64,000 nucleotides of DNA from Candidatus Shapirobacteria bacterium (GCA_043817235.1 JBDRHA010000007.1:73212-137211); one strand, 5' to 3'; counted from the first letter of the stretch, positions 5,590 to 37,966 are shown. The notes: generated by a model not told the origin, from the letters alone. Program-made: numbers and translations.

Positions 5590-6365
5590 TTCTTATCAAC
5601 CTCGGGAGTTGATTATCCTTGCAACCTCGGAATTTTTATTCATTAGTTAAAAATTCAATTTTTTTGAGTTCTTTTTGATAATCTTTTCTGTTAAAGACGA
5701 AATCTTTATAATTTTTAGACTTGTTGTGAGAAATAATTATTTCTTTTTTGCATATTTCTTGATTGTTGCTTAAATATTCCTGCAGCGAAGACCAAGGATA
5801 ATTTTTTAGTTGTTTTGAAGTATTTACTATTGCTGAGGAATATGGATTAAGGTGTATATATCGAGTAAGATGAAGAAGCTGCTCTTCATTGTTTACTAAA
5901 ACGGCCTTAAATCTGCCCTGAAAAAGTGGCCCAAATTTATCTTGCTTTTTGTTAAAATACCTTGCATATCCGTTTTGTACAGTAGCCATTAATTTTGATA
6001 TGCCATCATTTCTGTTTTGTTTTAAAAGAACATGGAAGTGGTTGGGCATTAGACAATAACAGATAATATCTGCATATTTAATATCTTCCTTTGAAAGATT
6101 TCTTAGGATTTTCTGTCTTTCTTCACTTTTTAAGATTAAAAATTTAGAATAACTACCAGGATGGTCTGAATGTTGATAGTAACTAAGCAGATCTTTAAAT
6201 CTTTGATAATCTCTCTTGCTTAAAAATATTGGCTGGCCATTGCTGCCGCGATTATAAACATGATAGTAGTAGTTAGTTACTAGAGGCAAAAATCTTCCTG
6301 GCATAGGTCAAAGATAACATCATAATTCCGATGTTGCAATAGCAATCAACTCCCGAGGTTGACTG
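5590..6365. mobile_element. IS200/IS605-family element (Y1 transposase only, possibly RAYT-like) bounded by palindromic hairpin repeats
   Basis: A transposase gene is flanked by mutually inverted hairpin sequences, ATCAACCTCGGGAGTTGAT (about 5596-5614) and AATCAACTCCCGAGGTTGA (about 6340-6358). A second, imperfect pair lies inside these (TTGCAACCTCGGAAT versus ATTCCGATGTTGCAA). Confidence 0.65.
5636..6304 (-). CDS. tnpA: HUH-type Y1 transposase, IS200-like / REP-associated tyrosine transposase family
   Basis: An HUH motif (..MPNHFHVLL..) and a catalytic tyrosine region (..LTRYIHLNP..) are present; the N-terminal YHVYNRG.. is typical of IS200 TnpA. At 222 aa it is longer than canonical IS200 TnpA. 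Confidence 0.7.
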   Translation of the reverse strand: MPGRFLPLVTNYYYHVYNRGSNGQPIFLSKRDYQRFKDLLSYYQHSDHPGSYSKFLILKSEERQKILRNLSKEDIKYADIICYCLMPNHFHVLLKQNRNDGISKLMATVQNGYARYFNKKQDKFGPLFQGRFKAVLVNNEEQLLHLTRYIHLNPYSSAIVNTSKQLKNYPWSSLQEYLSNNQEICKKEIIISHNKSKNYKDFVFNRKDYQKELKKIEFLTNE

Positions 6366-11083: not shown

Positions 11084-11117
11084 TTAGATTTGGGATAATG
11101 GTATTATTATTATATAA

Positions 11118-11312: not shown

Positions 11313-11313
11313 G

Positions 11314-12205: not shown

Positions 12206-12258
12206 AACTCTAGATATTGATTGCGCAAAGAGCGATTTTTGTGATAGATTATTTTTTA

Positions 12259-13413
12259 ATGCCCAAGGGATGGATTTTTATTTTCTTCGTGATACTGCTG
12301 TTATTTCCGATAAAAAGTTTGGCAGTCTCTGACTTAATTTTATATAAATTTAGTTCTTTTTCTTCCCCCGACTGGATAGAAATCAAAAATATTAGTGAAG
12401 AGAGTATTTCTTTAAATAATTATTCGTTAGAGGATGAGGCTGGAAACAGGAAGACAAATTTTGACTGCTTTTTAAATTCAGGAGGAATTTATGCTGTTGA
12501 TTTTAGTAACTGGTTAAATAACGGCGGAGACGCTATCTATTTAAAAGATGTCGACGGAGTTATTGATTGTGCTGCTTATGGAGATAGCGAGTGTCCAGGC
12601 GAAAATCCATTAGATTTTGAGGAAGACAGTGATAACAAATATGGTATTTGGAATGGGGTAAGTTGGGAAATTACTGATGATTCCGGCAAAGCTGAAAATT
12701 CGGCTTGCGAAGTATTGCAGAATACTCCGGTTGTTGCTCCGACGCAAGTAAATACACCGACAGTATCTTCTAGTGGCAATTTTAAAATCAACGAGGCCAA
12801 GGATAGCGATGGTGGGAATATTTCTAACGCTAAGATATATGTGGATGATGTCTATACCCATCATTACGCTCCGGAAGATTTAGGGTTTTGCGATGGTTGT
12901 GATTGCAACAGTGGCGGAGAAGCTAGTTGCGGCTACGGCCAGCATAATATTAGGTTGACTAAGGACGGATATCAAGATTGGTAGCAAACAGTAACAATTA
13001 ATTCTGGGAATAATTATGAGGTTGATCCGATTTTAACTAAAGAAACCCCCACCTCCACTCCAACGCCTTCGTTTACGCCGACACCAACAATTAAGCTAAT
13101 AACTACCACTCCCAAAGCTTCTTTGACGCCGGCCTTGTCGCCTACTCCGACAGCAGATAGCGACTTAACCCCGACCTTAAAAGATGAAATTTCTTTATCG
13201 GTAACAAAAGAAAGTGGCCAGGCCGGCGAAATTTTGGGCGAAGCAAAGGAAGGAGAGAAGTCTTTCGGCTCAGTGAAAAACAAGAAAATTTTGGCTGGCG
13301 GCTTTATTGGCTTGGGCGGCGGCCTGATAGTGGCTGCTTCTTTGGCCGGAAACAAGAAGAAGCAAGAGAAAGCTGATTTTGATACAATGGAAGATAATGA
13401 AGACGAAAGCTAA
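12259..13413 (+). CDS. Secreted LTD (lamin-tail-domain) surface protein with Cys-rich module, PT-rich linker and C-terminal TM anchor, interrupted by a single in-frame TAG at 12982-12984
   Basis: There is a signal peptide (MPKGWIFIFFVILLLFPIKSLA) and an LTD-like segment (SPDWIEIKNISEESISL...NNGGDAIYLKDVDGVIDCAAYG). The same frame is open from 12985 to 13413 and encodes a PT linker followed by ILAGGFIGLGGGLIVAASLAGNKKKQEK. The track splits this into 12217..12984 and 13123..13413. Confidence 0.5.
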
Positions 13414-14687: not shown

Positions 14688-17273
14688 ATGATTAAAAAAT
14701 TATCGAAATTGGGTCTTGGTCTAATTTTATTCTTGCTTCTTTTAGTAGCTTTGGCAACCGGATTAAGCGGTACTAAGGAAATTGCGGGCTTTAGGCTTTT
14801 TAGCGTAAAATCCGCTTCTATGTTTCCGGTATTAAAAGCGGGTGACTTAATTATTATTAAAAGAGACAACTTTTACGCTGTGAACGACATTGTTACTTTT
14901 GCCCGGGAGGCTGGCGCAGATAAAAAAGATGGCAAGACTGTGACCCATCGGATTGTTGACAAGTCTAACTTGGGGGAAAAGATTTTTTATATCACCAAAG
15001 GTGATGCCAACGAAACAGCTGATCGTGAGCTGGTGGCTTTTGAAAATATATTGGGCAAAAAGGTGTTTGCTTTCCCCTTAGCCGGCTATCTTATTAGTTA
15101 CACCCAGACCCTGCCGGGTTTGCTTATCTTAATCGTTATTCCCGGAACCGTTATTATTTATTCAGAACTAATCAAAATTAAGACGGAGTTATTTAGCTTG
15201 TTGGACAAAAAGAAGTCTTCTAAAAGTAGAATAATATTTATGGCAGTGATATTGACCGCTTACTTATTAAGACATCTTGGGTCTCCCTCGTTTTCTTATT
15301 ATGCGGATAGTGTTTCTTTGGGCCAGTTTAGCTTTTCTTTAGGAGATTGGACAAGGCCGAAGTCGGAAATTATCTCGGAAGAAACTTTGCTTAACAGTTT
15401 GCAGTTTAATATTGACTACGAAGCTTCCGATAATAATTTAGATTATATAGAGCTTTGGTATTCCTATAATTTTGGCGATTGGCAGCTATTTGCTGTGGAT
15501 ATTCCCGCTTCTTTGGGGGATTTTGATTTTACTTCGCCCGAAGGAGATGGCTTTTATCGGTTTATTACGGTTGCCGTTGACAAATTAGGAAATTGCGAAG
15601 ACAAAGACGATAATAGTGTTGACGATAATCTAGAACTAGAAGATCTTGCTTTGTTTTTGGGCTGGGATCTTTACGAGGTGCAGGTAGACACCCAAGCTCC
15701 TTATACGATTTTATCTTTGGGTGAATTTGGCGACGATGATTGGGGTGAAAACCGCTTTGGGCTAAACGAGCAGACGCTAAGCGGCAATTTTGAAGATACA
15801 TCTGGCTCGGAAAGAAACTGGATTATGGGGGGTGACGGCGACCATCGGGCAATTGACAATCTTGGCTTAGCTGGCCAAGCCGAAGTTTTTGGCGGTGATT
15901 ATTCCGGGCTAATAGGCTGGTTTGACTCTGATCCTGCAGTTGTGGGGACGGATTATCTTTATCAAATAATTACCCTGCCTAATACCCCCGCTACTTTGTC
16001 TTTCTGGTTCAGGGTTCTTAGTGAAGATACGGTTGATTATGATTCTTTTACGGCCAAAGTTATTGACGAAGCTGACCCGAGCAATGAAGAGGTAATTATC
16101 AGAACCGGTTCTGATGAACTTAGTGGCTGGTCTTTTGATAGTTTTTGGCAGGAAGTTACCTATTCATTAAATAGTTGGTTAGGAAAGACGGTTAAGCTTT
16201 GGTTTGGAGTAGAAAACAAAGATGAGCAGGCAATTCCTCTTAGGACATATGCTTTAATTGATGATCTTCGCGTGACTAATTTAGATAACTGGCTGACTAC
16301 CGGAAAAGAGATTGAGGTAAAAGCGAATGATCTTGGATCGGGAGTAGAGGCAACCTATTGTCGGATTAACGGAGGAAGCTGGGAGGAATGTTTGGGAATT
16401 TTTACTCCCAACGAAGCCGGCATTGGAGACAGCCAAGATTTGAATATTGAGTATTATTCAATTGATTTGGCCGGAAACCTGGAGGCTACCGAAAGCTTAG
16501 AGCTAAAAACCGATAACAGTAAAAGTTATTTTGGCCTGGTTTTAAACCAAATATCACCTCGACCCTCGGGGTCTGATTCAGGAACAAGCGGTTTGCCTTT
16601 AGAGGGGGAGTGGGTCGAGCTGTGGAATAATTCGGATGCGGATATTGATGCTGACGGCTGGGTCTTGCGGGAAAAGAGCGGAGCCTTTTTGCCTATTAAA
16701 GCGCAGAACTCTGATAATAATGGAAATTTATCTGATGGCGGTGAAACCCTAGTGCCGCCAGGCGGCTGGCTGAGAGCCTATCGAAATGGCGACTCGGATT
16801 TTAATTTGAATGATGATGTTGATAAAGTAGAGCTTTGGACCGACTATGAGGGCAGTGGTGGAAGCCTAGTTGATTCTTTTAGCTATGGTGAAGTTTTAAG
16901 CGATGATAAGACTTGGAAAAGAAATCCGGATGGAACCGGAGCCTGGGCTGACCCGGGCGTAGATATTGATTTTACTTCTTTGGGCTCCGGTAAATTTAGG
17001 CTTCAAGTTGGCAGTTTGCCCCAAAAAACAAAGCAGGTAAACTACGAGGTTCTTTACTTTAGCCTAGGGGTAGAAAAGGGTGTTTACGGAGAGGCAAAAG
17101 AGATTAAGGAGCAAAATTTAAAAAAAGAATTAATTTTAGGAACTTGCTCGACTGACGGATGCTTAAATGACTTTATTGACCAAAATCAAATCTTCGTAAA
17201 TTTAGAAATAATTAAAGAGGCGGGAATAGAAGATATTCATATTGAAAGCAGCTTTCTGTTTGTGATTAAATGA
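14688..17273 (+). CDS. SipW-type (S26B, ER/archaeal-type) signal peptidase fused to a large extracellular region containing a lamin-tail domain
   Basis: The N-terminal part has the peptidase motifs SASMFPVLKAGDLIII, KTVTHRIVD and TKGDANETAD. The C-terminal part has an LTD signature (LEGEWVELWNNSDADIDADGWVLRE...VDKVELWTDYEGSGGSLVDSFSY). Which start codon is used (TTG 14667, GTG 14685 or ATG 14688) is uncertain. Confidence 0.7.
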   Translation: MIKKLSKLGLGLILFLLLLVALATGLSGTKEIAGFRLFSVKSASMFPVLKAGDLIIIKRDNFYAVNDIVTFAREAGADKKDGKTVTHRIVDKSNLGEKIFYITKGDANETADRELVAFENILGKKVFAFPLAGYLISYTQTLPGLLILIVIPGTVIIYSELIKIKTELFSLLDKKKSSKSRIIFMAVILTAYLLRHLGSPSFSYYADSVSLGQFSFSLGDWTRPKSEIISEETLLNSLQFNIDYEASDNNLDYIELWYSYNFGDWQLFAVDIPASLGDFDFTSPEGDGFYRFITVAVDKLGNCEDKDDNSVDDNLELEDLALFLGWDLYEVQVDTQAPYTILSLGEFGDDDWGENRFGLNEQTLSGNFEDTSGSERNWIMGGDGDHRAIDNLGLAGQAEVFGGDYSGLIGWFDSDPAVVGTDYLYQIITLPNTPATLSFWFRVLSEDTVDYDSFTAKVIDEADPSNEEVIIRTGSDELSGWSFDSFWQEVTYSLNSWLGKTVKLWFGVENKDEQAIPLRTYALIDDLRVTNLDNWLTTGKEIEVKANDLGSGVEATYCRINGGSWEECLGIFTPNEAGIGDSQDLNIEYYSIDLAGNLEATESLELKTDNSKSYFGLVLNQISPRPSGSDSGTSGLPLEGEWVELWNNSDADIDADGWVLREKSGAFLPIKAQNSDNNGNLSDGGETLVPPGGWLRAYRNGDSDFNLNDDVDKVELWTDYEGSGGSLVDSFSYGEVLSDDKTWKRNPDGTGAWADPGVDIDFTSLGSGKFRLQVGSLPQKTKQVNYEVLYFSLGVEKGVYGEAKEIKEQNLKKELILGTCSTDGCLNDFIDQNQIFVNLEIIKEAGIEDIHIESSFLFVIK

Positions 17274-19453: not shown

Positions 19454-20129
19454 TTTTGATCTTTACTTTACTCGCCCGCCAGCGGGCAATTTCTTGATGA
19501 TTGCCTGACAAAAGAACCTTAGGCACTTTCCAATCCATAAAATTTTCCGGACGTGTGTAATGAGGAAATTCAAGAATTTTTCCCGCCGCTTCTTTTCTGT
19601 TAGCCCATTTTTTCATTGCCGGAGAAAACGATTCGATTTCTGAAGCTCCTTCTTTTTCCAAGACTCCGGGCAAAAGTCGAGAAATAGCGTCAATTAAAAC
19701 TAAAGCCGGCAATTCTCCACCGGACAAAACATAATTGCCAATAGATATTTCCTTGTCTATTAGGTGTTTTCTAATCCGTTCGTCAATGCCTTCATAATGG
19801 CCGCAAAGAAGAACTAGATGCTTTTCTTTAGATAAATTACTGGCCTTTTTTTGGTTAAATATTTTTCCTTTGGGAGAAAGAAAAATCACTTGAGAATTTT
19901 TCTTTTTTAGTTTTCTTAAAGCATTATAGACGGGCTCAATTCTCAGAATCATTCCTGGGCCGCCGCCGTAAGCAGTGTCATCCACGGTTCCTCGCTTATC
20001 TATTCCCCAGTCTCTTAAATTATGTGCCTTAACTTTTAAAACACCCACTTTTCGGGCTTTTTTAATCATGCTCCAGTCAAAAAAAGAGTCTAAGAATTCT
20101 GGGAAAAGAGTCAAAACATCAACTTTCAT
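19446..20129 (-). CDS. trmD: tRNA (guanine37-N1)-methyltransferase
   Basis: The protein reads MKVDVLTLFPEF... RGTVDDTAYGGGPGMILRIEP, matching the TrmD SPOUT fold motifs. Confidence 0.9.
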   Translation of the reverse strand: MKVDVLTLFPEFLDSFFDWSMIKKARKVGVLKVKAHNLRDWGIDKRGTVDDTAYGGGPGMILRIEPVYNALRKLKKKNSQVIFLSPKGKIFNQKKASNLSKEKHLVLLCGHYEGIDERIRKHLIDKEISIGNYVLSGGELPALVLIDAISRLLPGVLEKEGASEIESFSPAMKKWANRKEAAGKILEFPHYTRPENFMDWKVPKVLLSGNHQEIARWRASKVKIKND

Positions 20130-20133
20130 AAAC

Positions 20134-20949
20134 TTATTTTAATGGACTTTTAATATTTTTAAGCTTTGGATTTGTCACCTGTGTATACCGTTGAGTTGTT
20201 CTGATATTTTGGTGCCCGAGAAGCTCCTGAACGTAGCGGACATCTACACCGTTTTCCAGTAAATGAGTAGCAAAAGAGTGCCTAAGCGAATGAAAAGTTG
20301 CGTTCTTTTTTATGTTTGAAGCGTGAAGCGATTTTTCAAAAATTTTCTGAGCTGTTCTTGTGGTTAGTTTTCCGCCTCGCTCGCTGGCAAAAACAAGATC
20401 ATTTTTTGATTTTCCCGCAATCAGATTCCTAAGGTGGTTTGTTAATTTTTTTGGTAATACGCTGATGCGGTCTTTTTGTCCTTTTGCGTGCTTGATATGA
20501 AGAATCATTTCTCCTAAATCCAAATCTTGGATTTTCAAAGCAATAACTTCGCTTACTCGCAAACCTGCTCCATACGCAAGCGATAAAAGAAGCTTATGTT
20601 TTGTATTTGTCAGAGTTTGCAAAATCTTTTCAATCTCGACTCGCGATAGCACCACCGGCAAACTTTTGGGCTTTTTTGCTGAGCGTATTTTAATTTTCTG
20701 TGGATTTTTCACTATATTGCGGTAGTAATATTTGATTGCGTTTAACAACAAATTTCGAGTTTGGAGGGAGACTTTTTTTTGTTCACAATGATGTAAGAAA
20801 TTTCTGATGTTTTCCTGATCAAGCTCTTCAAAATTATCTTTCTTGAAGGTGAAATATTCCTGCAAACTATAAAGATAGCTTTTTATGGTCTTTGGACTGT
20901 AATTGAGAATTTTTAACTCCCGTTTGGTTTTTTCAAGTTGCTCTTGCAT
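20134..20949 (-). CDS. XerC/XerD-like tyrosine site-specific recombinase (short, 271 aa)
   Basis: The catalytic R..H-R-Y region is present (GLRVSEVIALK, HSLRHSFATHLLENGVDVRYVQELLGH, TTQRYTQV). Confidence 0.85.
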   Translation of the reverse strand: MQEQLEKTKRELKILNYSPKTIKSYLYSLQEYFTFKKDNFEELDQENIRNFLHHCEQKKVSLQTRNLLLNAIKYYYRNIVKNPQKIKIRSAKKPKSLPVVLSRVEIEKILQTLTNTKHKLLLSLAYGAGLRVSEVIALKIQDLDLGEMILHIKHAKGQKDRISVLPKKLTNHLRNLIAGKSKNDLVFASERGGKLTTRTAQKIFEKSLHASNIKKNATFHSLRHSFATHLLENGVDVRYVQELLGHQNIRTTQRYTQVTNPKLKNIKSPLK

Positions 20950-21109
20950 AATTAGTAGATCTTAGATAATATTGTCTTAATTTTAATGTGTTTGAGGAAA
21001 GATTATCATAACTTCACATAACATACAAATTATGACTTGAATTATGAAAACACTTCGTATAAAAACGAGTTATATGTAATTTGAGTCAGGAACATAAAAA
21101 AATAATGTA

Positions 21110-21125
21110 GGGGCAAAAATTTATA
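21110..21125 (+). repeat. GGGGCAAAAATTTATA motif, copy 1 (right-hand arm of an inverted-repeat pair bracketing gene 21149..22045)
   Basis: An exact copy recurs at 22282-22297, and its reverse complement AAATTTTTGCCCCTT lies at about 22053-22067 and 23391-23405. Each copy sits 8-25 nt upstream of an ATG and contains a -10-like TATA(C/T)(T/A). Confidence 0.6.
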
Positions 21126-21148
21126 TAGATTGCTAATTCATCAATATT

Positions 21149-22045
21149 ATGGACAAAAAAATCTTAAATCACTACTTACAATTTGGCACATTTACTAATC
21201 CTGGTTGCTATAAAGAATTTCTTCAAAATCTTCCAGATGATGTTAAAGAACTGGGCAACTTAATCAGTCATCAAATCATTCATCGCGTTACTCTCAAAGA
21301 AGGCAACACAAAAGCCAATAGAGATTTGCGTTACGGCGATATGAAAAAGCATCCTTGGCATAGATTAAGATGTGAGGATGATGTGTTGCCTACTGCGGTT
21401 TCAATGATTGCAGAATTATTAAGATTTGATGACCGAGGGTTTTTGCCCGACAGAAAAGTTGAAAATAAAATTGTTGTCACTTGTCGTTTTGTGGCAATAC
21501 TTATGGCATCTATATTGAAATCAAAAAATATTCCTTGCCGAGTGAGGTCTGGATTTGCGCCCTATTTCAATAAATATAGCGGTGACCACTGGATTAATCA
21601 GTATTGGGACAGTAAAAAAGAAAAGTGGATCACCTTTGACGCAGATGGATTTTTTGATAAGTCAATTGGGTTTGACCAATATGATATGCCTGAAAATAAA
21701 TTTGATTGGGCGGCAAATACTTGGCTTGGAATAAGAAACAAAAAATTAGATGCCAACAATTTTAGAAATGCGGACGGTTCTGTCGGGCTTATGCCAGTTC
21801 TTTGGGCAATATTTTACGATTTTCATAGTTTGATGAACAACGAAATTCTTTATAATCAAATGCCCAGTTATATTTATTTCAAATTTGATAAATTAACTGA
21901 AAAAGATTTTGAAGAAATTGATGAATTAGCCAAATTGATGTTAGAACCAGATAAAAACTTTGATGAATTAGTCAAAATCTGGAATACAAAGAAGAAATTC
22001 AGAATTTTGAATGGTCCACTTATTGGTGATAGCGATCACTTTTAG
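21149..22045 (+). CDS. Transglutaminase-like cysteine protease superfamily protein
   Basis: A Cys-His-Asp arrangement is present (VVTCRFVAILMASILKSKNIPCRVRSGF ... GDHWINQYWD ... WITFDADG). Confidence 0.55.
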   Translation: MDKKILNHYLQFGTFTNPGCYKEFLQNLPDDVKELGNLISHQIIHRVTLKEGNTKANRDLRYGDMKKHPWHRLRCEDDVLPTAVSMIAELLRFDDRGFLPDRKVENKIVVTCRFVAILMASILKSKNIPCRVRSGFAPYFNKYSGDHWINQYWDSKKEKWITFDADGFFDKSIGFDQYDMPENKFDWAANTWLGIRNKKLDANNFRNADGSVGLMPVLWAIFYDFHSLMNNEILYNQMPSYIYFKFDKLTEKDFEEIDELAKLMLEPDKNFDELVKIWNTKKKFRILNGPLIGDSDHF

Positions 22046-22305
22046 TGGAAATAAATTTTTGCCCCTTTATTTAATAAAATGTTTCTGACTCAAACTCACT
22101 CCGCTACGCTCCGTGCCACGTTGCGCTCTCCCTACACTTCGTTTCGGTCGGGACATATAACAAAGATTATGAGGAAAATGGCTCGGCTCGCCATTTTCCC
22201 AAATTTGCTCCACTTCGTTCCGCAAACTTCTCATAATCCTGACGTTAAGTGAAATAATTTTTAGTGACGATATCTTTTTAAGGGGCAAAAATTTATACTA
22301 CAAAT
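22046..22305. repeat. About 250-bp intergenic element bounded by a 15-bp inverted repeat (AAATTTTTGCCCCTT ... AAGGGGCAAAAATTT), MITE-like
   Basis: The terminal inverted repeats are at 22053-22067 and 22282-22297. The internal GC-rich block (ACGCTCCGTGCCACGTTGCGCTCTCC...CGTTTCGGTCGGGACATAT) resembles blocks in other intergenic regions of this array. Confidence 0.45.
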
Positions 22306-23391
22306 ATGACAAAGTTTATTCTCGGGTTACAACTGTGTGAACAATTTTATAAAGAGGTCGTGAAAGTTCTCATCGAAACAGAGTTTCATGGGCTCAAATA
22401 CTCTGCTGGATTGATTGGGTCTGGTTCGGAGGTTTTTGGTTTTGATACAGAGCGTTCGACCGATCATCATTGGGGTCCGCGTGTCCTGCTTTTTCTTTCT
22501 TCAAAAGACATCAGTAGGAAGAAACAAATTTCTGATTACCTCAGCAACAATCTTCCTCCAACATTTCATGGTTACTCAACACATTTTGGCAATCCTGACG
22601 AAATAGGTGTACAGCTTCTATCCGAGGCAAAAGCAGGACAACCGATCAATCATCGTGTGGAGATTTACACAATTGAATCATTTTTCAAAGAGTATCTGTT
22701 GATTGATCCCAATGATGATCTCACTGCTTCCGATTGGCTCACTCTATCCGAACAGAAACTCCGAACCATACGGAGCGGCAAAATTTTTTACGACCAACTT
22801 GGATTAAAGGCAGTTCAAAATAAACTCCATTATTATCCCAAAGATGTTTGGTTTTATATGCTTGCGTCTGAATGGATGAAAATAAGCCAAGAAGAACCGT
22901 TTGTTGGTCGTACTGGAGATGTGGGTGATGAATTAGGATCAAAAATTATTGCCGCTCGACTTGTGCAATCAATCATGAAACTCTGTTTCTCAATGGAGCA
23001 AGAATACGCACCATACAGCAAGTGGTTTGGTACGGCTTTTTCACGCTTAAAGTGTGCTAAAAAACTTTCGCCGATTTTGGATAAAGTCCTTTCCGCCAAA
23101 GATTGGAAAGAGCGTGAAAAATACCTTTCTCAAGCCTACAAAGTTGTTGCTCAAATGCACAATGATTTGAAACTCACCAAACCACTTGCAACAGAAGTAT
23201 CGAGCTTTCACGACCGACCTTATTTAGTGATTCACGGAGATGTCTTTGCAAACGAACTCAAGAAGAAAATCAAAGACCCTGCTGTCAAAAAGATTTCCGC
23301 TGATATTGGCTCCGTGAATCAATTCTCCAACACAGTTGATCTGCTAGAAAACGATAAACTGATGAAGAAGCTAAAAATTCTATACCGATAA
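22306..23391 (+). CDS. Nucleotidyltransferase-fold protein (minimal NTase N-domain plus DUF4037-like C-domain)
   Basis: The N-terminus carries the hG[GS]...D.E NTase signature (LIGSGSEVFGFDTERSTDHHW). Confidence 0.5.
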   Translation: MTKFILGLQLCEQFYKEVVKVLIETEFHGLKYSAGLIGSGSEVFGFDTERSTDHHWGPRVLLFLSSKDISRKKQISDYLSNNLPPTFHGYSTHFGNPDEIGVQLLSEAKAGQPINHRVEIYTIESFFKEYLLIDPNDDLTASDWLTLSEQKLRTIRSGKIFYDQLGLKAVQNKLHYYPKDVWFYMLASEWMKISQEEPFVGRTGDVGDELGSKIIAARLVQSIMKLCFSMEQEYAPYSKWFGTAFSRLKCAKKLSPILDKVLSAKDWKEREKYLSQAYKVVAQMHNDLKLTKPLATEVSSFHDRPYLVIHGDVFANELKKKIKDPAVKKISADIGSVNQFSNTVDLLENDKLMKKLKILYR

Positions 23392-23766
23392 TTTTTTGCC
23401 CCTTTTTATGGAAGTCACTAAAAATTACTCTCGCCAGCCCTTCGGGACGTTGCACTCTGGCTCGGGCTTCGCCTCACTTAACACAGAATATGCGGTTCTC
23501 TGCATTGCATTTGTTCTCCCAAATCTCTTGACTGATGTAAAATACAGCATATCAGTCGGCGTGACTTCGCCCATACTGGAACGTTATATGTATCTAGCGG
23601 ATATTCTCAACCGCTACCAATACACGGCAGAAGAGTTTGGCAATGCTTACCTCAAGAAAATGAATCACAATCTTAAGAGGGATTATTCAAAAAGCCAAAC
23701 GCAAATAATCGAGTTTTACTTCTTCGTTCCTCGAGCTCATTCAATTAGTTTTTGAGATAATCAATT

Positions 23767-24342
23767 ATGAAATTAGACACTTTTATCATTGGCAATCTAG
23801 AGAAAAACTTTTTGAGAAAGAGAAATAACGCAATGAAAAAATCAAAGGCCGATTTAGTCATGATTTTAAATACGGATATTGAAGTTTCCAATGTCAAGCC
23901 AACACTCAAACTCTTCGAGAAAGACGATAAGCTTTTTGCCGTCACTTTCTCGCCAGAATCTAGCCAATCGAAAATTGTAAAAAACGCTGAATTTGCCAAC
24001 GGTGGTTCTTCAATCTACAGAAGAAAAATTTGGAATAAGATTGGAGGAATAGACTTAATGTATGAGCCTTACTGGTGGGACGACGTTGATTACTCTTACC
24101 AAGCCAAGAAAATGGGTTACAAAATACTTGCTGATGGTAGAGTCAAAGTTGTCAAGAAAAGTGAGCTAGGCACAGACATTTTAGGTCGAAAACCTTATTC
24201 CAAATTTATTTATTACAGGAACCACCTGTTATTTCTCAGAAAAAACAAACCCAAAGAATTTCTCAAAAAATTTAAAAAACCTCTTTATCTTCCTCTACTG
24301 TTACTTGTCGAACTTAGGTTTAGAAAATTTCATAATTGCTAA
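23767..24342 (+). pseudogene. N-terminally truncated GT2 glycosyltransferase fragment
   Basis: The ORF begins inside the GT2 fold (..ADLVMILNTDIEV.. ; ..YWWDDVDYSYQAKKMGYKI..) and lacks the SYN / DGS.D N-terminal region. It is preceded by repeat-element sequence rather than an intact 5' end. Confidence 0.5.
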
Positions 24343-24373
24343 TTTATTTTAATTGACATTCGCTCTGCGGTAC

Positions 24374-24392
24374 TCGACCCCACTGCGTTTTC
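24374..24392 (+). repeat. TCGACCCCACTGCGTTTTC, a conserved GC-rich intergenic block (second copy at 26767-26785, degenerate relatives in other intergenic regions)
   Basis: An exact 19-mer is shared by the intergenic regions downstream of genes 23767 and 26197. Related CCCCA(Y)TGC(R)TT(Y)TC cores occur at about 25958-25972 and about 27538-27556. Confidence 0.6.
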
Positions 24393-24535
24393 AGCCGGAG
24401 AGCAGGGGAACGATTTTACTCTCCTTCTTCAGCTCGCACAACACGGCATGTAGGGTTAATGCCTCAGCTCGGCATTCAACCCAAATTATTCTGTCTTGTT
24501 GTAAAATAGTTTAACAAGCCAGTCTAACTTCCTAC

Positions 24536-24557
24536 ATACCGAAACGTTGTCGGAAAT
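24536..24557 (+). repeat. ATACCGAAACGTTGTCGGAAAT 22-mer, copy 1 (copies at 26131-26152 and, slightly diverged, 27588-27609), each preceded by a hairpin
   Basis: The sequence is identical at 24536 and 26131; 27588 reads ATACCGAAGCGTTATCGGAAAT. Each copy lies 45-160 nt upstream of the next + strand gene (24720, 26197, 27699). Hairpins sit upstream of each copy: CTTGTTGTAAAATAGTTTAACAAG (24495-24518), CATGTT..AACATG plus GTCCGCTTAACTACGGAC (26085-26130), and CGCATAACATAGTATATGCG at 27588. Confidence 0.65.
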
Positions 24558-24719
24558 ACGTTTTTAATTTTAAGATTTTCTGTTCCGCTTTTTATTAAGA
24601 AATAAAAACATTTTAGGGGGATAGAACAAAAGAAGAGTAAAACTTGAAAATCATTTCACCTGCTGTATAATACTGCCAACCTATTATTTTCTGCCCCTTC
24701 GATTTTTACTACAACTATT

Positions 24720-25838
24720 ATGACGCGGGAAATAGAGCCACCTAAAACATTTGAAACTGTCCCCCGACCCAGACCAGACACTTGGACACAGCTCTTTCAA
24801 GACGAAAAAAAATTAGCAGAATTAATGGGGGCATTTAAAGAAGTTACGGGAATTGATTTTTGCAACACTCCGATAAAAGCCTTAGGGAATAGAGTTATAG
24901 TGCCAGAATCGTTGATTACAAGACCAGAAGATATTAGGGGCGGGCCACTTACTGCCCTAGGTATTGTTAGACACATGCTTCTGGGCCATATAGTCATCTC
25001 TCCTTTTGATCCAGAACTGCTTGGTGCCAATGGCTACGATTTTAGAGTGTCTTGTCTACAAGGATATGCAAGAAGAGAAATAATAGAAGGTCTTAAAGAC
25101 AGAATCGGAAAAACCGGTCAAGTAGTTATCTATCATGAAGGATCTCAACCTAGAAGTGAATTCATTATTAATCCTTATAATCCAGATGACGTTGACCACA
25201 TCTGGCATTTAGTCAACGGAACCCAAGTTCAAGACATAAAAAGACAATCTCAAGATGATTGGGCCACTATCATGGGTGAAAATAGAATGGACGCTAGTGA
25301 TTGCCCGATAGATTTAAGAGGTGCACATCCCTTAAATCGTGCCTTTCTTATTCCGGGCCATCAAACTATCTTGTTGCGAACAGAAGAGGTAATTGGAGGA
25401 ATTGGTTGTGTGGTTCCAAAAATGTTGGGAAAATCTTCGAGCAGAAGGTGGGATTTTACTGTATGTGGAGATGCTCAACTTGGTAATTTAAATTGGATCG
25501 GTCATTGGGCCATTGAAGTTCAAAATATTACTGAATACACAAAATTCCTCGTTCACCAAACCCCTCTCGGACAGATGGAATTCACTCTAACAGCTGAAGA
25601 CCTACCCTCAAACTCTTCTTACGCTGGACAATATGCCAGCATCCAAGCAGCAGGAAACAATCTTCAAACTCTTTATTCTAATGTAGAACGGTATAGACAG
25701 AGATATCAAATAAGTGACTTATTACCCAGACCTCTTAGGTCTCCCGGCCCGATAGTAGAAGGGTTGACCCGTGAACAAGCATTCCGCGCTTGGGATAAAG
25801 CAGCAGAGATGTTTGGTACTCCACCAAGACAAAATTAA
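24720..25838 (+). CDS. Hypothetical protein with dCTP-deaminase/dUTPase-superfamily-like N-terminal region; GC-richer than surrounding genes
   Basis: The segment ..GHIVISPFDPELLGANGYDFRV.. resembles the Dcd-type beta-barrel motif. Its codon composition is visibly GC-enriched. Confidence 0.35.
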   Translation: MTREIEPPKTFETVPRPRPDTWTQLFQDEKKLAELMGAFKEVTGIDFCNTPIKALGNRVIVPESLITRPEDIRGGPLTALGIVRHMLLGHIVISPFDPELLGANGYDFRVSCLQGYARREIIEGLKDRIGKTGQVVIYHEGSQPRSEFIINPYNPDDVDHIWHLVNGTQVQDIKRQSQDDWATIMGENRMDASDCPIDLRGAHPLNRAFLIPGHQTILLRTEEVIGGIGCVVPKMLGKSSSRRWDFTVCGDAQLGNLNWIGHWAIEVQNITEYTKFLVHQTPLGQMEFTLTAEDLPSNSSYAGQYASIQAAGNNLQTLYSNVERYRQRYQISDLLPRPLRSPGPIVEGLTREQAFRAWDKAAEMFGTPPRQN

Positions 25839-26196
25839 AAGCAACTCTTTCAGCTCAAAAAATTCACCCCTCACCTCTCTTTTTTTCGCCGAATTTAAAA
25901 CAAGAGAGAAATAAAAAGCGGAACAGAAAATAGAGAATAAAGAACAAAAACGTACTCCTCGCTTCGCTCGCCCCATTGCATTCTCAACTTTTTTCTTTTA
26001 AAAAAATATAGCAAATAGTTTCGGGTCACCTAACACAGTATGTCCGGCTCATACGGTTGCACCTTTTCGCCCTAATTAAGCAGACATGTTGTAAAATTAA
26101 ACAGCCTAACATGTCCGCTTAACTACGGACATACCGAAACGTTGTCGGAAATCGAAAAACATTTAAAATACATCTATTAAAAATTAAGAAAATTTT

Positions 26197-26742
26197 ATGG
26201 CAGTAAAAATAACTTATTTTGTCCATGGCACCACCACCGATAATCAAAAGGAAATCTCTTCTGGTTGGTCTGATGTTGAGCTTTCTGATTTAGGAGTTAA
26301 ACAATCTATAGATCTCAAAGATCAAATTAAAGATAAAAAGCTTGACGTTGTTTTTTGTTCTGATCTCAAGCGAGCAGTTGATTCCGCCAAGCTTACTTTT
26401 GATGGTGTAGTCAAAATTATCCAGGATAAAAGATTGAGAGAATGTAACTATGGTGTACATAATGCTGGTCTATCTAGTATTGTCGAACCTCTCCAAGAAA
26501 AAAGCATCGTCAAAAGATTTCCTGAAGGCGAAAGTTATGAAGATGTTAAAAAAAGAATTCAAGATTTTCTTAATTTTCTAAAACAAAACTATGATGGCAA
26601 GCATGTTGCCATTGTCGCCCACAAAGCGCCCCAACTTGCTCTGGAAGTTCTTTTGAAAGGCAAGACCTGGGAACAAGCTTTTGCAGACGATTGGCGAAAG
26701 AAAAAAGCTTGGCAACCTGGCTGGGATTTTGTTTTAGAGTAA
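26197..26742 (+). CDS. Histidine phosphatase superfamily (phosphoglycerate-mutase-like) protein
   Basis: An RHG-like N-terminal motif (ITYFVHGTTTDN), ..VFCSDLKRAVDSA.. and a later HKAP histidine region are present. Confidence 0.65.
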   Translation: MAVKITYFVHGTTTDNQKEISSGWSDVELSDLGVKQSIDLKDQIKDKKLDVVFCSDLKRAVDSAKLTFDGVVKIIQDKRLRECNYGVHNAGLSSIVEPLQEKSIVKRFPEGESYEDVKKRIQDFLNFLKQNYDGKHVAIVAHKAPQLALEVLLKGKTWEQAFADDWRKKKAWQPGWDFVLE

Positions 26743-26906
26743 ATGTTTTTCGACTTCTCCTTTCAGTCGACCCCACTGCGTTTTCGTCGTTTTGTTTTTT
26801 AAATTTTAACAAACATCCTTAGGTCGTCTAACGCAATATATAGAGCTCGGTTCATTGTCCTCCCTCAAGCCCATATCGCTCATGCTTTTGATATAATACT
26901 TTAAAG

Positions 26907-27515
26907 ATGGCAAAATTACTCTTAACATCTACGGGGCTTGCAAACCAAAATATCACGGATCAGTTTTTACAAATAATAGATAAGCCGGGTTCTCAAATCA
27001 AAATTATATTTGTTCCCGCCGCCGCAAGAAACGAAGAAGAATTAAAATATATTGCCGAATCAAAAAAAGAACTTCTTGACTTAGGCATTTTTGAAGATAA
27101 CATTAAAACTTTGAATTTAGATAATCATGTTTTATTTAAAGAAGTCGAAAATTTTGATGTTATTTATGTATGCGGTGGAAATACTTTTTATCTGCTGAAA
27201 AAAGTTAGAGAAGTTGGCTTTGATAAGGTAATTATTGAATTTACAAAAACTGATAAACTTTACTTTGGAGTTAGTGCGGGAAGTATTTTAGTTTGCCCAA
27301 ATATTGATATTGCAAGTCCCTTTGACGAGAATGATATCAATTTAACTGATTTAACTGGATTAAATTTAACTGATGTGATTGTTTCCCCTCATTATAAAGA
27401 TGAAGAGAAGATGGTTATTGATAATTTCAAGAAAAAGTCACAGTATAAAGTTGTGCCTTTAACTGATGAGCAGGCATTGTTAGTTGTCGACGGGGAAACA
27501 AAAACAGTAGAATAG
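26907..27515 (+). CDS. Peptidase S51 (dipeptidase E / cyanophycinase-like) family protein
   Basis: It has a class-I glutamine-amidotransferase-like fold with a nucleophile-elbow serine (YFGVSAGSILVCPNI). Confidence 0.6.
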   Translation: MAKLLLTSTGLANQNITDQFLQIIDKPGSQIKIIFVPAAARNEEELKYIAESKKELLDLGIFEDNIKTLNLDNHVLFKEVENFDVIYVCGGNTFYLLKKVREVGFDKVIIEFTKTDKLYFGVSAGSILVCPNIDIASPFDENDINLTDLTGLNLTDVIVSPHYKDEEKMVIDNFKKKSQYKVVPLTDEQALLVVDGETKTVE

Positions 27516-27698
27516 CGCGCGTATTTGGAATTCAAGGGGATGCTGCGTTTTCGCATAACATAGTATATGCGGCTACGAACATCGCATATACCGAAGCGTT
27601 ATCGGAAATATTTTTTGTGATAAAATAAATCAAATTAATGCGAGGCGAGGTGCTTAAGTGATTGGTTCAGCCGGAGAGAGATAAAAAGTAAATTTATA

Positions 27699-28676
27699 AT
27701 GGGTGATTATAAAAAAATGAAGAAGGTTTTAATTTGTGGTGCCGGGGGTTTTATTGGCTCGCATCTTGCCAAGCTTCTAAAGAAAGAGGGCTGCTGGGTG
27801 CGGGGAGTGGATATTAAAAAGCCGGAATATAGCAAGAGTGCAGCGGATGAGTTTCTTCTTCTTGATCTTCGGGAAAGAAAAAATTGCCAAAAAGCATTAA
27901 CAAAAAGAGGTGGTTTTGACGAGGTCTATCAGTTAGCGGCTGATCGAGGGGGAGTAGGGTATATGATTCCCGGAGAGTGCGATATGATGGAAAATAATGC
28001 CTTAATGAATATTTATATGATTTCGGAGGCGGTTAAATTGAAAAAAAAGCCTAAATATTTCTTTTCCTCGTCCGTTTGTGTTTATAAAGATATGAAAATT
28101 GGGACGCCAATGATCTTGGAAAAAGATGTTTATCCTGCCTATCCTGACAATGAATATGGCTGGGAAAAACTATATACGGAGAGAATGCTTACTGTTTTTG
28201 GCAAGCGCTACAAAATGCCCATTAGGATCGCTCGATTTCATACTACTTATGGCCCGGAAGCTAATTGGGAGGGGGGACGAGAAAAGGCGGCGGATGCTTT
28301 ATGCCGGAAAGCGGCTTTGGCCAAAGATGGCGACTATTTGGAAGTTTGGGGGGATGGCAAAACGATCAGAGTTTTTACTTATATTGATGACCTACTTTTC
28401 GGAATTCGCGCTTTGATGAAGTCTTCTATCCCTGAGCCAACAAATGTTGGCAGTGATGAATATGTTACTGTTAATCAGTTGGCTAAAACAGTCATTGAAG
28501 CTTCCGGCAAGAACCTAAAGATTAAAAATATTAAAGGGCCGATTGGTGTGCAAAGCAGAAATTTTAGCAATAAACAGATTTATTCTACGGGTTGGCGGCC
28601 AAAAGTATCTTTAAAAGAGGGCATTGCGATTCACTACCAATGGGTCAAAGGAGAGGTAGAGAAAAAATATAAGTAA
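27699..28676 (+). CDS. NAD-dependent sugar epimerase/dehydratase (SDR extended family; GDP-mannose 3,5-epimerase-like)
   Basis: A Rossmann motif (VLICGAGGFIGSHL), the SxnYxxxK active site (SSVCVY...YGWEKLYTERM) are present. The start could be ATG 27699 or 27717. Confidence 0.8.
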   Translation: MGDYKKMKKVLICGAGGFIGSHLAKLLKKEGCWVRGVDIKKPEYSKSAADEFLLLDLRERKNCQKALTKRGGFDEVYQLAADRGGVGYMIPGECDMMENNALMNIYMISEAVKLKKKPKYFFSSSVCVYKDMKIGTPMILEKDVYPAYPDNEYGWEKLYTERMLTVFGKRYKMPIRIARFHTTYGPEANWEGGREKAADALCRKAALAKDGDYLEVWGDGKTIRVFTYIDDLLFGIRALMKSSIPEPTNVGSDEYVTVNQLAKTVIEASGKNLKIKNIKGPIGVQSRNFSNKQIYSTGWRPKVSLKEGIAIHYQWVKGEVEKKYK

Positions 28677-28687
28677 TTAATGTTTAA

Positions 28688-36537: not shown

Positions 36538-37548
36538 GTTTGGTAGACGATCCAAGAGATCTAAGTTTTTGACAAATTCTTTTCTTTGAAATTTGAAGTA
36601 ACCTGTAATGGCAATCATAGCCGCATTGTCAGTTAAAAGAGAGGGAAGGGGGATAAAAACAGGGAAGTTGTTTGCATCACCAACTTTTTTGACCTCTTTT
36701 TGCAGAAGCTGGTTATTAATAACTCCGCCGCCTAAAAATATTTGCTTCGGTTTGGTTTTTTTAATAGCCAGCTGTAATTTCAAAATAATGGAGTGAACCA
36801 AAACTCTTTCAAAGGATGCAGAAAAATCGGCTAAAAATCTTTTATCTTTTAGTTTTCTTTTAGGAATTTTTCTTAATTTATAAAAACAAGCGGTTTTTAA
36901 ACCGGAAAAACTGAAGTTTAGACTTTGAGAGCGGGCCATTGGGATCGGTAAATCAAATTTTAGTGGATTGCCCTGGGCCGCTAACTTAGAAATTTCCGGG
37001 CCGCCGGGATAAGGAAGGTTAAGCATTTTTGCCACTTTATCAAAAGCTTCACCGGCTGCATCGTCTAAAGTTTCTCCAAGAAGCTGATACTGACCGATTT
37101 TTTCCATCAATACTAATTGCGTATGACCGCCGGAAACAAGTAATCCGAGAATTGGATATTTTATTTTAAAATTTTGAGCTAAGCAGGAAAGAAAATGGCC
37201 TTCCATATGATTAATTGCCAGCAAGGGCTTTTGATATTTTCTGGCTAATTCTTTTGCTTTTTTTAAGCCTACTTCCAGAGCAATTGATAAACCGGGACCT
37301 TGAGTAACCGCAATAGCCTGAATATCCTGCCAGTCTTTATCGGCTTTTTTAAGGGCCTGCTTAATTACCGGGTTAATCTTTTTTTCATGCTCTCTTTTGG
37401 CTAAATTAGGAACTACTCCGCCCCAGGGCTGGTGAATTTTTATTTGCGAGTAAATAATGTTACTTAGTACGCGTTGTCCTTGGGTGACTGCAGCTGCAGT
37501 TTCGTCGCAAGAAGTGTCGATGCCGAGTATAATAATTTTGCTTTTCAT
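36511..37548 (-). CDS. tsaD: tRNA N6-adenosine threonylcarbamoyltransferase
   Basis: The protein reads GIDTSCDETAAAV ... AINHMEGHFLSCLA ... SGGVINNQLL, matching the Kae1/TsaD family. Confidence 0.9.
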   Translation of the reverse strand: MKSKIIILGIDTSCDETAAAVTQGQRVLSNIIYSQIKIHQPWGGVVPNLAKREHEKKINPVIKQALKKADKDWQDIQAIAVTQGPGLSIALEVGLKKAKELARKYQKPLLAINHMEGHFLSCLAQNFKIKYPILGLLVSGGHTQLVLMEKIGQYQLLGETLDDAAGEAFDKVAKMLNLPYPGGPEISKLAAQGNPLKFDLPIPMARSQSLNFSFSGLKTACFYKLRKIPKRKLKDKRFLADFSASFERVLVHSIILKLQLAIKKTKPKQIFLGGGVINNQLLQKEVKKVGDANNFPVFIPLPSLLTDNAAMIAITGYFKFQRKEFVKNLDLLDRLPNLNFPRAKI

Positions 37549-37573
37549 CAGAATGACATATTATACTCAATTT

Positions 37574-37966
37574 ATGGATCAAGATTGCGTATTTTGTAAA
37601 ATTATTCAGGGTAAAGTTCCTGCTTATAAAATTTACGAAGATAAAGATTATTTGGCTTTTTTGGATATTAACCCCTGGGTGGAAGGCCATACTTTGGTGA
37701 TCCCTAAAAAGCATTATCGCTGGGTTTGGGATGTTAAAGACCTGGGCGGTTATTTTAAAATTACCGGTAAAATAGCCAATCAGTTGCGCAAAATTTTTAA
37801 GACAGAATTTGTGATGAGCTATATTTATGGTTATGATGTGCCTCATGCTCATATCCAGCTTTTCCCTGATGCACGCGGGAAAATCGCTTTATTCCCTAAA
37901 GAAAAACTGGGAAAATTGACTGAAAAAAAGGGCAAAGAATTAGCCAGAAAAATTTCTTTTAAGTAA
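37574..37966 (+). CDS. HIT-family (histidine triad) hydrolase
   Basis: The protein reads CVFCKIIQGKVPAYKIYEDKDYLAFLDINP ... HAHIQLFP. The track ORF starts at 37457, but the ATG at 37574 (MDQDC) avoids overlap with tsaD. Confidence 0.75.
   Translation: MDQDCVFCKIIQGKVPAYKIYEDKDYLAFLDINPWVEGHTLVIPKKHYRWVWDVKDLGGYFKITGKIANQLRKIFKTEFVMSYIYGYDVPHAHIQLFPDARGKIALFPKEKLGKLTEKKGKELARKISFK

Follow-up and report, generated by a model that had tools for sequence, protein, structure and literature searches.

The stretch of DNA analysed here, 64,000 nt from Candidatus Shapirobacteria bacterium (GCA_043817235.1, JBDRHA010000007.1:73212-137211; hereafter the window, with coordinates counted from its first letter), contains at 20134-27598 an integron-like platform in the Patescibacteria (candidate phyla radiation, CPR), made up of a tyrosine recombinase, an attI-like site and a run of six single-gene cassettes that share one orientation and carry attC-like sites. 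A sequence-only reading of the window had pointed out that two adjacent and unrelated genes, the first two of these cassettes, are each bracketed by the same short inverted repeat. In the modelled circular form of the cassettes, this bracket is the attC stem continued past the R box, which the crossover would split so that one half is left at each end of the gene. Overlooked in that reading is that this outermost helix belongs to a larger fold, which runs on through the coding sequence. The fold is preserved in the nucleotide sequence for as long as the gene remains a cassette, and domesticated copies lose it. The probable explanation of both bracket and fold is that a folded, single-stranded mobile form of the cassette is under selection.

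The comparison set consisted of 80 contigs carrying relatives of the recombinase (57-79% identity), mostly labelled as Patescibacteria metagenome-assembled genomes (MAGs; loci labelled L0xx). Additional loci (L081 onwards) are homologues of gene 1 or gene 2 from protein searches, including a metagenome scan. Exact-sequence look-ups of gene 1, gene 2 and the recombinase returned nothing on record, and an Rfam scan of 20000-28800 gave no credible RNA family match. Literature searches, whose coverage was incomplete, returned no paper on integrons in Patescibacteria/CPR or on self-complementary cassettes; self-complementarity over the length of a cassette, coding sequence included, is not described for integrons and is apparently undescribed.

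Layout of the array

The recombinase end of the platform and its first two cassettes contain the following features, in which a slash marks the predicted crossover.

20134..20949, minus strand: tyrosine recombinase, 271 aa, with Pfam Phage_integrase and SAM domains, transcribed divergently from the array
21051..21076, plus strand: attI-like site CACTTCGTATAAAAACGAG/TTATATG, crossover between G21069 and T21070
21070..22244, plus strand: cassette 1 as a whole (leader, open reading frame, trailer, module, and attC up to the crossover G)
21080..21095, plus strand: outer 5' arm of cassette 1, TTTGAGTCAGGAACAT, pairing with 22079-22094 (16 bp)
21109..21124, plus strand: inner 5' arm of cassette 1, AGGGGCAAAAATTTAT (the upstream repeat first noticed), pairing with 22051-22066 (16 bp)
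21149..22045, plus strand: gene 1, transglutaminase-like, 298 aa (Pfam Transglut_core, E = 4e-5), with internal nested helices
22051..22066, plus strand: inner 3' arm of cassette 1, ATAAATTTTTGCCCCT
22079..22094, plus strand: outer 3' arm of cassette 1, ATGTTTCTGACTCAAA
22097..22152, plus strand: 56-nt module (…CCACGTTGCGCTCTCCCTACACTTCGTTTCGGTCGGG) between 3' arm and R'', with relatives in L089/L090 and L077
22153..22251, plus strand: attC-like site 1, with R'' ACATATAAC at 22153-22161, L'' at 22165-22174, L' at 22230-22238 and R' GTTAAGTG at 22244-22251
22245..23583, plus strand: cassette 2 as a whole
22255..22268, plus strand: outer 5' arm of cassette 2, TAATTTTTAGTGAC, pairing with 23414-23427 (14 bp)
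22280..22296, plus strand: inner 5' arm of cassette 2, AAGGGGCAAAAATTTAT (again the repeat first noticed), pairing with 23388-23404 (16 bp)
22306..23391, plus strand: gene 2, DUF4037 protein, 361 aa (Pfam DUF4037, E = 9.5e-31), with about 25 internal nested helices
23388..23404, plus strand: inner 3' arm of cassette 2, ATAATTTTTTGCCCCTT, overlapping the stop codon and with one mismatch to the 13-mer
23414..23427, plus strand: outer 3' arm of cassette 2, GTCACTAAAAATTA
23429..23473, plus strand: 45-nt module 5' of R'', absent from the L081 and L083 copies of cassette 2
23474..23590, plus strand: attC-like site 2, with R'' TCACTTAAC at 23474-23482, L'' at 23486-23495, L' at 23570-23579 and R' GTTATATG at 23583-23590

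The six plus-strand open reading frames (ORFs) encode, in order, a transglutaminase-like protein, a DUF4037 protein, a protein of unknown kind, a dCTP-deaminase-like protein, a histidine phosphatase and a peptidase S51. Behind each of them lies an imperfect palindrome of the form …AAC (R''), L'', variable loop, L', GTT… (R'). The GC skew of the window is positive except over 22-27 kb, where it is flat or negative.

The bracket around genes 1 and 2

The 13-mer GGGGCAAAAATTT occurs exactly at 21110-21122 and 22282-22294, both on the plus strand, its reverse complement (AAATTTTTGCCCC) occurs exactly at 22053-22065, and a one-mismatch copy (AATTTTTTGCCCC) lies at 23390-23402, so that both genes are indeed bracketed. 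The 5' copies stand 26 nt (gene 1) and 11 nt (gene 2) ahead of the ATG, and the downstream copy of gene 1 begins 7 nt beyond the stop TAG (22043-22045). The sequence-only reading gave gene 2 exactly the same arrangement, which does not quite hold: its downstream copy overlaps the stop TAA and is the one with the mismatch. By hand arithmetic, about 0.002 exact copies would be expected in 2 x 64 kb, which agrees with the earlier judgement that the similarity is not coincidental.

There is no further exact copy of the 13-mer in the window or in the 80 related loci, the count at up to two mismatches is uninformative (16 found in the window, 10.9 expected), and a looser motif scan returned the bracket arrangement only in the gene 1 and gene 2 cassette families. 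With 0/80 related loci containing it, the motif is neither a lineage-wide consensus nor a repetitive extragenic palindromic (REP) sequence.

The repeats are two-tiered and longer than the 13-15 bp first given. The shared inner arm is present as described, at about 16 nt, and outside it lies a second, outer arm of 14-16 nt that is specific to each unit. The arms were aligned in a matrix of own versus foreign scores, with shuffles; the own pairs score 48 (unit 1) and 36 (unit 2) against shuffle maxima of 26 and 25, and the outer arms pair across the gene, not across the spacer. Two more units have brackets of other sequence, at 24575-24596/25910-25931 (22 nt, perfect) and 26152-26165/26740-26753 (14 nt). 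In the related arrays, own-arm complementarity beyond the R box lies above the 99th percentile of foreign pairings in 16/46 cassettes.

The place of these arms becomes apparent when the 3' non-coding region and attC of each cassette are joined to the cassette's own leader and then folded. The modelled circle junction is one continuous hairpin, made up of inner arm, outer arm, R box, L box and loop. In L083, where the outer arm abuts the R box, the junction folds with a minimum free energy (MFE) of -46.8 versus -13.4 kcal/mol (z = -12); the junctions of the window reach z = -7.1 (cassette 1) and -41.1 kcal/mol with z = -6.6 (cassette 2). Since the arms continue the attC stem in the circle and the crossover falls at G/TT, integration would leave the halves flanking the gene, and the 13-mer would be the rung nearest the ORF in the stems of two cassette families.

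Crossover point and mobility of the cassettes

The crossover cores of the first cassettes are G21069/T, G22244/T and G23583/T. Cassette 1 starts exactly at G21069/T in the window, and the same start is found in L097 (97% identity) after a different attC (…CCGATG/TTATATGTAATTTGAG), with the cassette's own attC retained. Copies of the gene 2 cassette from the metagenome scan (54-91% aa identity) stand behind five different upstream attCs (L081, L082, L083, L084/L092, L089/L090), and their similarity begins at ACG/TTA. The same cassettes are thus present in different arrays, joined at G/TT, which supports the earlier suggestion that the genes are individually mobilisable. The families are widespread; for gene 1 alone, 1425 homologues pass E <= 1e-20, and they come from CPR bacteria, DPANN archaea and other groups.

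R'' of either window cassette matches the complement of that cassette's first nine bases at 9/9 positions, and that of the adjacent R' at only 6/9. Such a preference for the own 5' end is the classical signature of a formerly circular cassette. If circularised, the cassettes would have the own-end junctions …CCTGACG/TTATATGTAATTTGAG (cassette 1) and …GGAACG/TTAAGTGAAATAATT (cassette 2). To judge from where similarity begins between arrays, cassettes are cut and joined between the G and the TT of the GTT core.

The attC-like sites themselves are hairpins of the expected kind. The bottom strand of attC1 folds as R box, spacer, L box and branched loop (-17.5 kcal/mol, z = -3.8), and 4/5 of the window's sites fold as hairpins (z = -1.5 to -5.9); isolated attC2 folds poorly in its array context (z = -0.75), but its circle junction does fold. 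The L boxes contain no extrahelical bulges and form perfect duplexes in the clearest sites, e.g., GTATATGCG/CGCATATAC at 27553-27608, and the sites are asymmetric only in the unpaired spacer (3 vs. 6 nt). The 3'-end motif (…GAAACGTTR…GAAAT) recurs in about 25/80 related loci, nearly always on the array strand upstream of the recombinase and in up to six copies per locus; L077 carries six attC-like sites.

The modules 5' of R'' (45-56 nt) share the motifs CCACGTTGCRC and GCGCTCTCCCTACRCTTCG.TTCGGTCGGG, are found in L077, L082, L088, L089 and L090, and vary in presence among copies of one cassette. In L089/L090 the module and L boxes resemble those of window attC1 despite a different gene, and R'' always fits the cassette's own 5' end. 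This sharing of module and L boxes alongside an own-matching R'' suggests exchange or templated correction within attC regions.

The recombinase and the attI-like site

The best NCBIfam match of the recombinase is the integron integrase model TIGR02249 (215.6 bits against a cutoff of 265, in two stretches), followed by the XerA-type model NF040815 (212 bits) and the XerC/D models (180-186 bits). Its best PDB match is VchIntIA, 2A3V (Vibrio IntI4), in which query residues 179-198 stand opposite residues 183-245, so that about 43 residues are missing; the gap falls exactly at the IntI-specific insertion (the patch III additional domain). By these alignments the recombinase is related to IntI and lacks the IntI-specific domain. 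The closest synteny of its locus is with a Shapirobacteria contig.

The attI-like site is the junction of the array with unique sequence at G21069/T. A similar site, CACTTCG.ATA…GTTA, is present in L077, and a promoter scan identified no cassette promoter (Pc). Many MAG contigs stop 100-250 bp upstream of the recombinase gene (L007, L008, L009, L014, L016, L019, L039, L046, L049, L057, L073 and others). These ends are consistent with the start of an array there and with strain-level variation of its cassettes, as expected of a variable array.

A fold along the whole cassette

Whole cassettes were folded with DNA parameters, and the MFE was compared with that of shuffled sequence as a z-score. 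Cassette 1 folds at -171.6 kcal/mol against a shuffle mean of -102.5 (z = -16; 91 end-to-end pairs) and cassette 2 at -215.2 against -132.6 (z = -13; 84 end-to-end pairs), whereas ten ordinary genes folded in the same way lie between z = -1 and -7. Each cassette is predicted to contain about 25 helices of 8-17 bp, mostly coding sequence against coding sequence, and many are perfect (e.g., 22462-22474/22708-22720 and 23018-23031/23176-23189). The helices are nearly pure Watson-Crick, both strands fold equally well, and the start codon of gene 1 is buried in them. The coding sequences fold strongly by themselves: gene 1 has z = -6.6 to -7.5 and three inverted 11-mers (0.05-0.1 expected), gene 2 folds at -174 against about -111 kcal/mol and has seven (0.0-0.2 expected), and the other ~50 ORFs of the window have at most two each.

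The same signal is found in the related arrays. On the array side of the 80 loci there are 138 exact inverted 14-mers (200-3000 nt apart) against 5 in shuffles, and they lie concentrically within single units, inside long ORFs. Inverted 11-mers within ORFs, counted against codon shuffles and binned by distance from the recombinase, give the following excess.

Array strand, within 1.5 kb of the recombinase: 100 against 4.2 (x24)
Array strand, 1.5-3 kb: x8.5
Array strand, 3-5 kb: x5.4
Array strand, 5-7.5 kb: x2.9
Other flank: x1-3

Nesting in preference to crossing is a requirement of genuine secondary structure, and repeat pairs on the array side are nested rather than crossing by 203 to 9 (p = 6e-49), compared with 65 to 67 on the other flank. 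The structured ORFs encode genuine enzymes that are unrelated to one another, among them a short-chain dehydrogenase/reductase (SDR; E = 5e-69), a metallo-beta-lactamase fold, methyltransferases and a racemase. Two other origins of the fold were considered and rejected: a decayed large palindrome, since intact enzymes are encoded and the offsets of the helices lack collinearity, and an artefact of assembly or amplification, given that the same helices recur in independent metagenomes.

Constraint on the fold and its dependence on cassette status

Several comparisons indicate that pairing itself is under constraint. In the deep lineage L089/L090 the inner arm covaries as GGGGCAAAAGTTT/AAACTTTTGCCCC and the outer arm as TAATTTTCAGGGGC/GCCCCTGAAAATTA. 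Copies that are 82-89% identical at the nucleotide level keep 89-97% of helix pairs, against a rough expectation of 80-86% estimated by hand from those identities (chance re-pairing added to pairs in which neither site has changed). In the codons of helix arms, synonymous changes are 3-5-fold less frequent (odds ratio 0.20-0.32, p = 5e-4 to 1e-7).

The fold also follows the status of the gene. For the DUF4037 gene, copies in cassettes reach z = -5 to -17, and homologues outside cassettes have z = +0.4 to -2.9. For gene 1 there is a series of decay, from the active cassette in L097 (z = -5.3) through a fossil in L098 that has a leader and no attC (z = -3.9) to an archaeal copy in L103 with only a remnant of the leader (z = -1.6), native copies being at about -1. 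In the class 1 cassettes of plasmid R46, blaOXA-2 has z = -0.9 and aadA1 z = -2.8, with no inverted 11-mers.

Two of the non-cassette loci deserve a description of their own. L103:2400-3415, on a Woesearchaeota contig, contains a homologue of gene 1 (82%) beside gyrA, with the leader remnant ATGGGCAAAAATTTATATAGAC and neither 3' arm nor attC, and looks like a fossil cassette transferred across domains. The 474-kb contig Ga0172380_10000008 carries unstructured, leaderless homologues of gene 2 (69%; L087) and gene 1 (77%; L104), about 50 kb apart; the NCBI label of its gene 1 protein is Candidatus Magasanikbacteria. The cassettes may derive from native genes of this kind.

Proposed mechanism

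Under selection on a folded mobile form, the fold would act on the single-stranded DNA (ssDNA) of the mobile state, either an excised single-stranded circle or an unwound strand of the array. In the circularised cassette the whole non-coding part would form one long hairpin with attC at its tip, and pairing would go on into the coding sequence. The cassette would thereby collapse into a rod, which could present or assemble the recombination site, join two flanking sites, and/or protect the intermediate; the long stem could also compensate for a recombinase and attC without the classical recognition of extrahelical bases. Action at the level of ssDNA is favoured because the helices are Watson-Crick and both strands fold alike, because the stem is coaxial with a DNA recombination site, because the start codon of gene 1 is buried, and because intact and presumably expressed domesticated copies lose the fold. 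It is quite conceivable, and put forward tentatively, that Patescibacteria (and DPANN archaea, via transfer) harbour an integron-like system without the IntI domain that moves genes as self-complementary, rod-like ssDNA circles, with folding demands that shape the synonymous sites of ordinary enzymes and with attC as no more than the tip of a hairpin as long as the cassette.

A number of points weigh against this explanation. We infer the mechanism itself (circle, single-stranded intermediate, activity of the recombinase) from sequence alone, and the recombinase, which has no IntI domain and is conserved like a housekeeping Xer, is tied to the array by adjacency alone. Wobble asymmetry (A.C vs. 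G.T on the sense strand, 10 to 4, p = 0.18) singles out no folding strand. Structure is uneven, being strong in units 1-2 of the window, moderate in unit 3 and hardly present in units 4-6; about 17% of first ORFs elsewhere have at least three repeats, and the fall-off with distance is partly confounded by arrays ending. The R46 control is small, comprising two ordinary-length cassettes of one element, and a third, short cassette, the 291-nt orfD, reaches z = -5.1, with no inverted 11-mer. The synonymous contrast with non-cassette homologues is weakened by saturation (60-68% nt identity). Finally, deep lineages of one cassette differ in their internal helices (about 55% paired), and there are few double compensatory changes inside the coding sequence; with such turnover, selection may be for general foldedness, or the helices may come from a mutational process.

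Alternative explanations

The fold might act in RNA instead, an unlikely reading that nevertheless has to be taken seriously. Leader and trailer would then pair as a processing stem, as in the stems around 16S and 23S rRNA, with the polycistronic array transcript being cut (e.g., by RNase III) into stable single-gene mRNAs or the cassette mRNAs being protected or silenced. The arms stand 11-26 nt ahead of the ATG and, at the other end, at the stop or immediately behind it, which is the geometry of such a stem; under RNA parameters the sense and bottom strands fold equally well; and the leaders have no canonical promoter, so that co-transcription from upstream is plausible. However, pairing is nearly pure Watson-Crick, with no excess of G.U on the sense strand and a trend in the opposite direction (4 vs. 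10), and the stem runs on without a break into the R and L boxes, which belong to a DNA recombination site. The start codon of gene 1 is sequestered, loss of the fold from intact non-cassette homologues would be unexpected if it served expression, and end processing needs no dozens of helices inside the coding sequence.

The shared inner motif, GGGGCAAAAATTTATA, could be chiefly an expression signal, such as a -10-only or leaderless promoter or an archaeal B recognition element (BRE)/TATA-like sequence, to which the 3' complement would be secondary; this is rather improbable as its principal role, and is compatible with selection on the folded mobile form. Two unrelated cassette families have the same leader motif, and in fossils without 3' arm and attC the 5' motif persists (L098; the archaeal L103 has ATGGGCAAAAATTTATATAGAC). 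TTTATATA also fits the archaeal TATA consensus, and TATACT/TATATA resembles a -10 box. The sequence-only reading had proposed a portable promoter on similar grounds, but a -35/-10 scan called no promoter on the leaders and no sigma-70-type site on either upstream copy; moreover, the motif is missing from the cassette leaders of the 80 related arrays, and its 3' complement covaries, so pairing itself is constrained.

Still less probable, though likewise to be taken seriously, is that the fold is a functionless by-product of mutation. Cassettes would pass repeatedly through a folded single-stranded state, and templated repair or template switching would use the opposite arm to correct mismatches in the helices, so that complementarity grows by itself until protein function sets a limit. 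This would account for helices that are perfect or nearly so and almost free of wobbles, for the turnover of internal helices between deep lineages with few double compensations in the coding sequence, for an R'' that always fits its own 5' end even where another cassette has module and L boxes of the same type, and for the decay of structure after attC is lost. On the other hand, synonymous suppression and pair retention above the estimate look like purifying selection, although lower damage in paired DNA could mimic it, and no such enzyme or process was identified here. It would in any case still need a single-stranded folded state, which makes it a variant of selection on the folded mobile form and not its opposite.

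DNA inversion of genes or segments by the adjacent recombinase, as in invertons or shufflons, is very improbable. A tyrosine recombinase does adjoin inverted repeats that lie around and inside genes, but the repeats are unique to each cassette and provide no common recombinase site, they number dozens per gene and are strictly nested (203 to 9), which is the signature of a fold, and the gene has the same orientation relative to the arms in about nine homologous copies of both cassettes.

The earlier view that the 250-bp spacer is a miniature inverted-repeat transposable element (MITE)-like unit with 13-15-bp terminal inverted repeats (TIRs), and/or that the repeat is a recombination target, can practically be discarded: AAATTTTTGCCCC (22053) and GGGGCAAAAATTT (22282) do flank the spacer, where the closing helix folds at -37.6 kcal/mol, but it appears TIR-bounded because neighbouring cassettes 1 and 2 share the inner arm, and it consists of an attC-like site of a family found in many arrays together with a 45-56-nt module, while the 13-mer is multicopy neither in the window nor in the 80 related loci, the second spacer is unbounded (no copy upstream of gene 3), the outer arms pair across the gene, and the junctions of the mobile units fall at the attC-type core G/TT, 36-40 nt upstream of the 5' copy.

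Comparison with known systems

The platform is an integron-like variant and not a member of the integrons, given that the IntI domain and the extrahelical bases are both missing. It shares with integrons a divergent IntI-like tyrosine recombinase, a putative attI-like site, and a co-oriented array of mostly single ORFs; AAC…GTT R-box palindromes, L boxes, variable loops and a G/TT crossover; and cassettes whose first bases are complementary to their own R'' and which occur in different arrays. The IntI-specific additional domain is treated as a hallmark of integron integrases in PMC4792948 and by Messier and Roy (2001), as cited in PMC9668308. IntI has a domain dedicated to the single-stranded attC pathway (PMC4792948), the classical substrate being the bottom strand of attC, folded as a single strand and carried on a non-replicative molecule (PMC8191803), and archaeal integrons are reported to retain the IntI domain (PMC9668308). 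In contrast, the recombinase described here has no such domain, the L boxes have no extrahelical bulges, and complementarity reaches 40-50 nt past the R box and through the coding sequence, a fold that blaOXA-2 and aadA1 do not have.

Among the other systems with genes or segments between inverted sequences, the Xer/dif system and the pdif modules of Acinetobacter plasmids also combine a short Xer-like recombinase with single genes. The pdif modules share conserved 28-bp XerC/XerD sites as their boundaries, whereas the brackets here are unique to each cassette, the conserved part is an attC-like hairpin, and the junctions fall at the GTT core. MITEs resemble the spacer as a short non-coding segment between inverted 13-mers; unlike a MITE family, only one such segment exists, its neighbour has no second TIR, and its arms belong to the flanking cassettes. 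No target-site duplication is evident by eye, no dedicated search having been made. Invertons and shufflons occur in both orientations, while all homologous copies examined here have a single one. REP sequences and the REP-associated tyrosine transposases (RAYTs) offer palindromic intergenic sequences and a RAYT-like gene in the window, but the repeat flanking that gene differs in sequence, and the 13-mer is not dispersed through the window.

Two comparisons concern RNA. The processing stems of rRNA operons (RNase III) likewise bracket units by long-range complementary flanks just outside their ends; here, the units are protein-coding, pairing continues inside, and the stem joins a DNA recombination site. 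With hepatitis delta virus (HDV) and the Obelisks, rod-like circular replicons that encode proteins (viroids being the non-coding counterpart), the likeness is of architecture only: a unit of about 1-1.5 kb, ORF included, with extensive nested self-complementarity, largely unbranched to branched, that would be a rod if circular. Those are RNA replicons with near-complete pairing, whereas chromosomal DNA cassettes moved by a recombinase are at issue here, with pairing in patches of 8-17 bp and no evidence of replication or ribozymes.

Other features of the array and the window

The remaining cassettes of the array, all on the plus strand, have their cores at G24546, G26141 and G27598, and their coding sequences show little structure.

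23584-24546, plus strand: cassette 3
24547-26141, plus strand: cassette 4
26142-~26890, plus strand: cassette 5
~26891-27598, plus strand: cassette 6

The attC-like site after gene 5 (26743-26906) has a degenerate R'/3' end, with …CATATCGCTCATGCTTTTG in place of …ACGTT…, and given this site cassettes 5 and 6 may be fused or immobilised.

Further inverted repeats lie elsewhere in the window and the related loci. The minus-strand ORF 5636..6304 resembles a RAYT (NF047646, E = 2e-14, below the cutoff) and is flanked by a 44-nt inverted repeat of 84% identity (5596-5639/6319-6362), as is usual for RAYTs and REPs. Another inverted repeat, of 28 nt and 89% identity (37237-37264/37924-37951), lies around the overlapping ORFs 37457..37966 (plus strand) and 37460..37852 (minus strand). 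On an Actinomycetota-labelled contig, the array-side flank L074:122-1895 includes a perfect 132-nt inverted repeat (122-253/1764-1895) and a 735-aa ORF with 10 internal inverted 11-mers. Clusters of the perfect palindrome TGTTCCACGTGGAACA, spaced by about 100 to 850 nt, are present in the non-array flanks of L055 (~15830-16710) and L069 (~10980-12550), and could be arrays of binding sites or an origin-like region.

Implications

For the biology of integrons, in which the physical form of the excised cassette and the way two attC sites meet are open questions, the cassettes described here record selection for folding of the whole unit, and the idea of a single-stranded intermediate becomes testable by recoding and by sequencing of junctions or ssDNA. 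The results indicate an integron-like system in CPR bacteria, which standard finders would miss if they require the IntI-specific domain. The families of gene 1 and gene 2 are spread over CPR bacteria and DPANN archaea, which helps to explain gene exchange among reduced genomes. The coding sequences of common enzymes (SDRs, methyltransferases, a racemase, DUF4037 proteins) can bear a strong constraint at the nucleic-acid level that vanishes on domestication; the fold is thus a practical marker of recent mobility and a caution for codon-based evolutionary analyses. If cassettes do move as rod-like ssDNA circles, they would be a DNA counterpart of the rod-like coding RNAs of HDV and the Obelisks, and would carry a signature that dates the last mobility of a gene.

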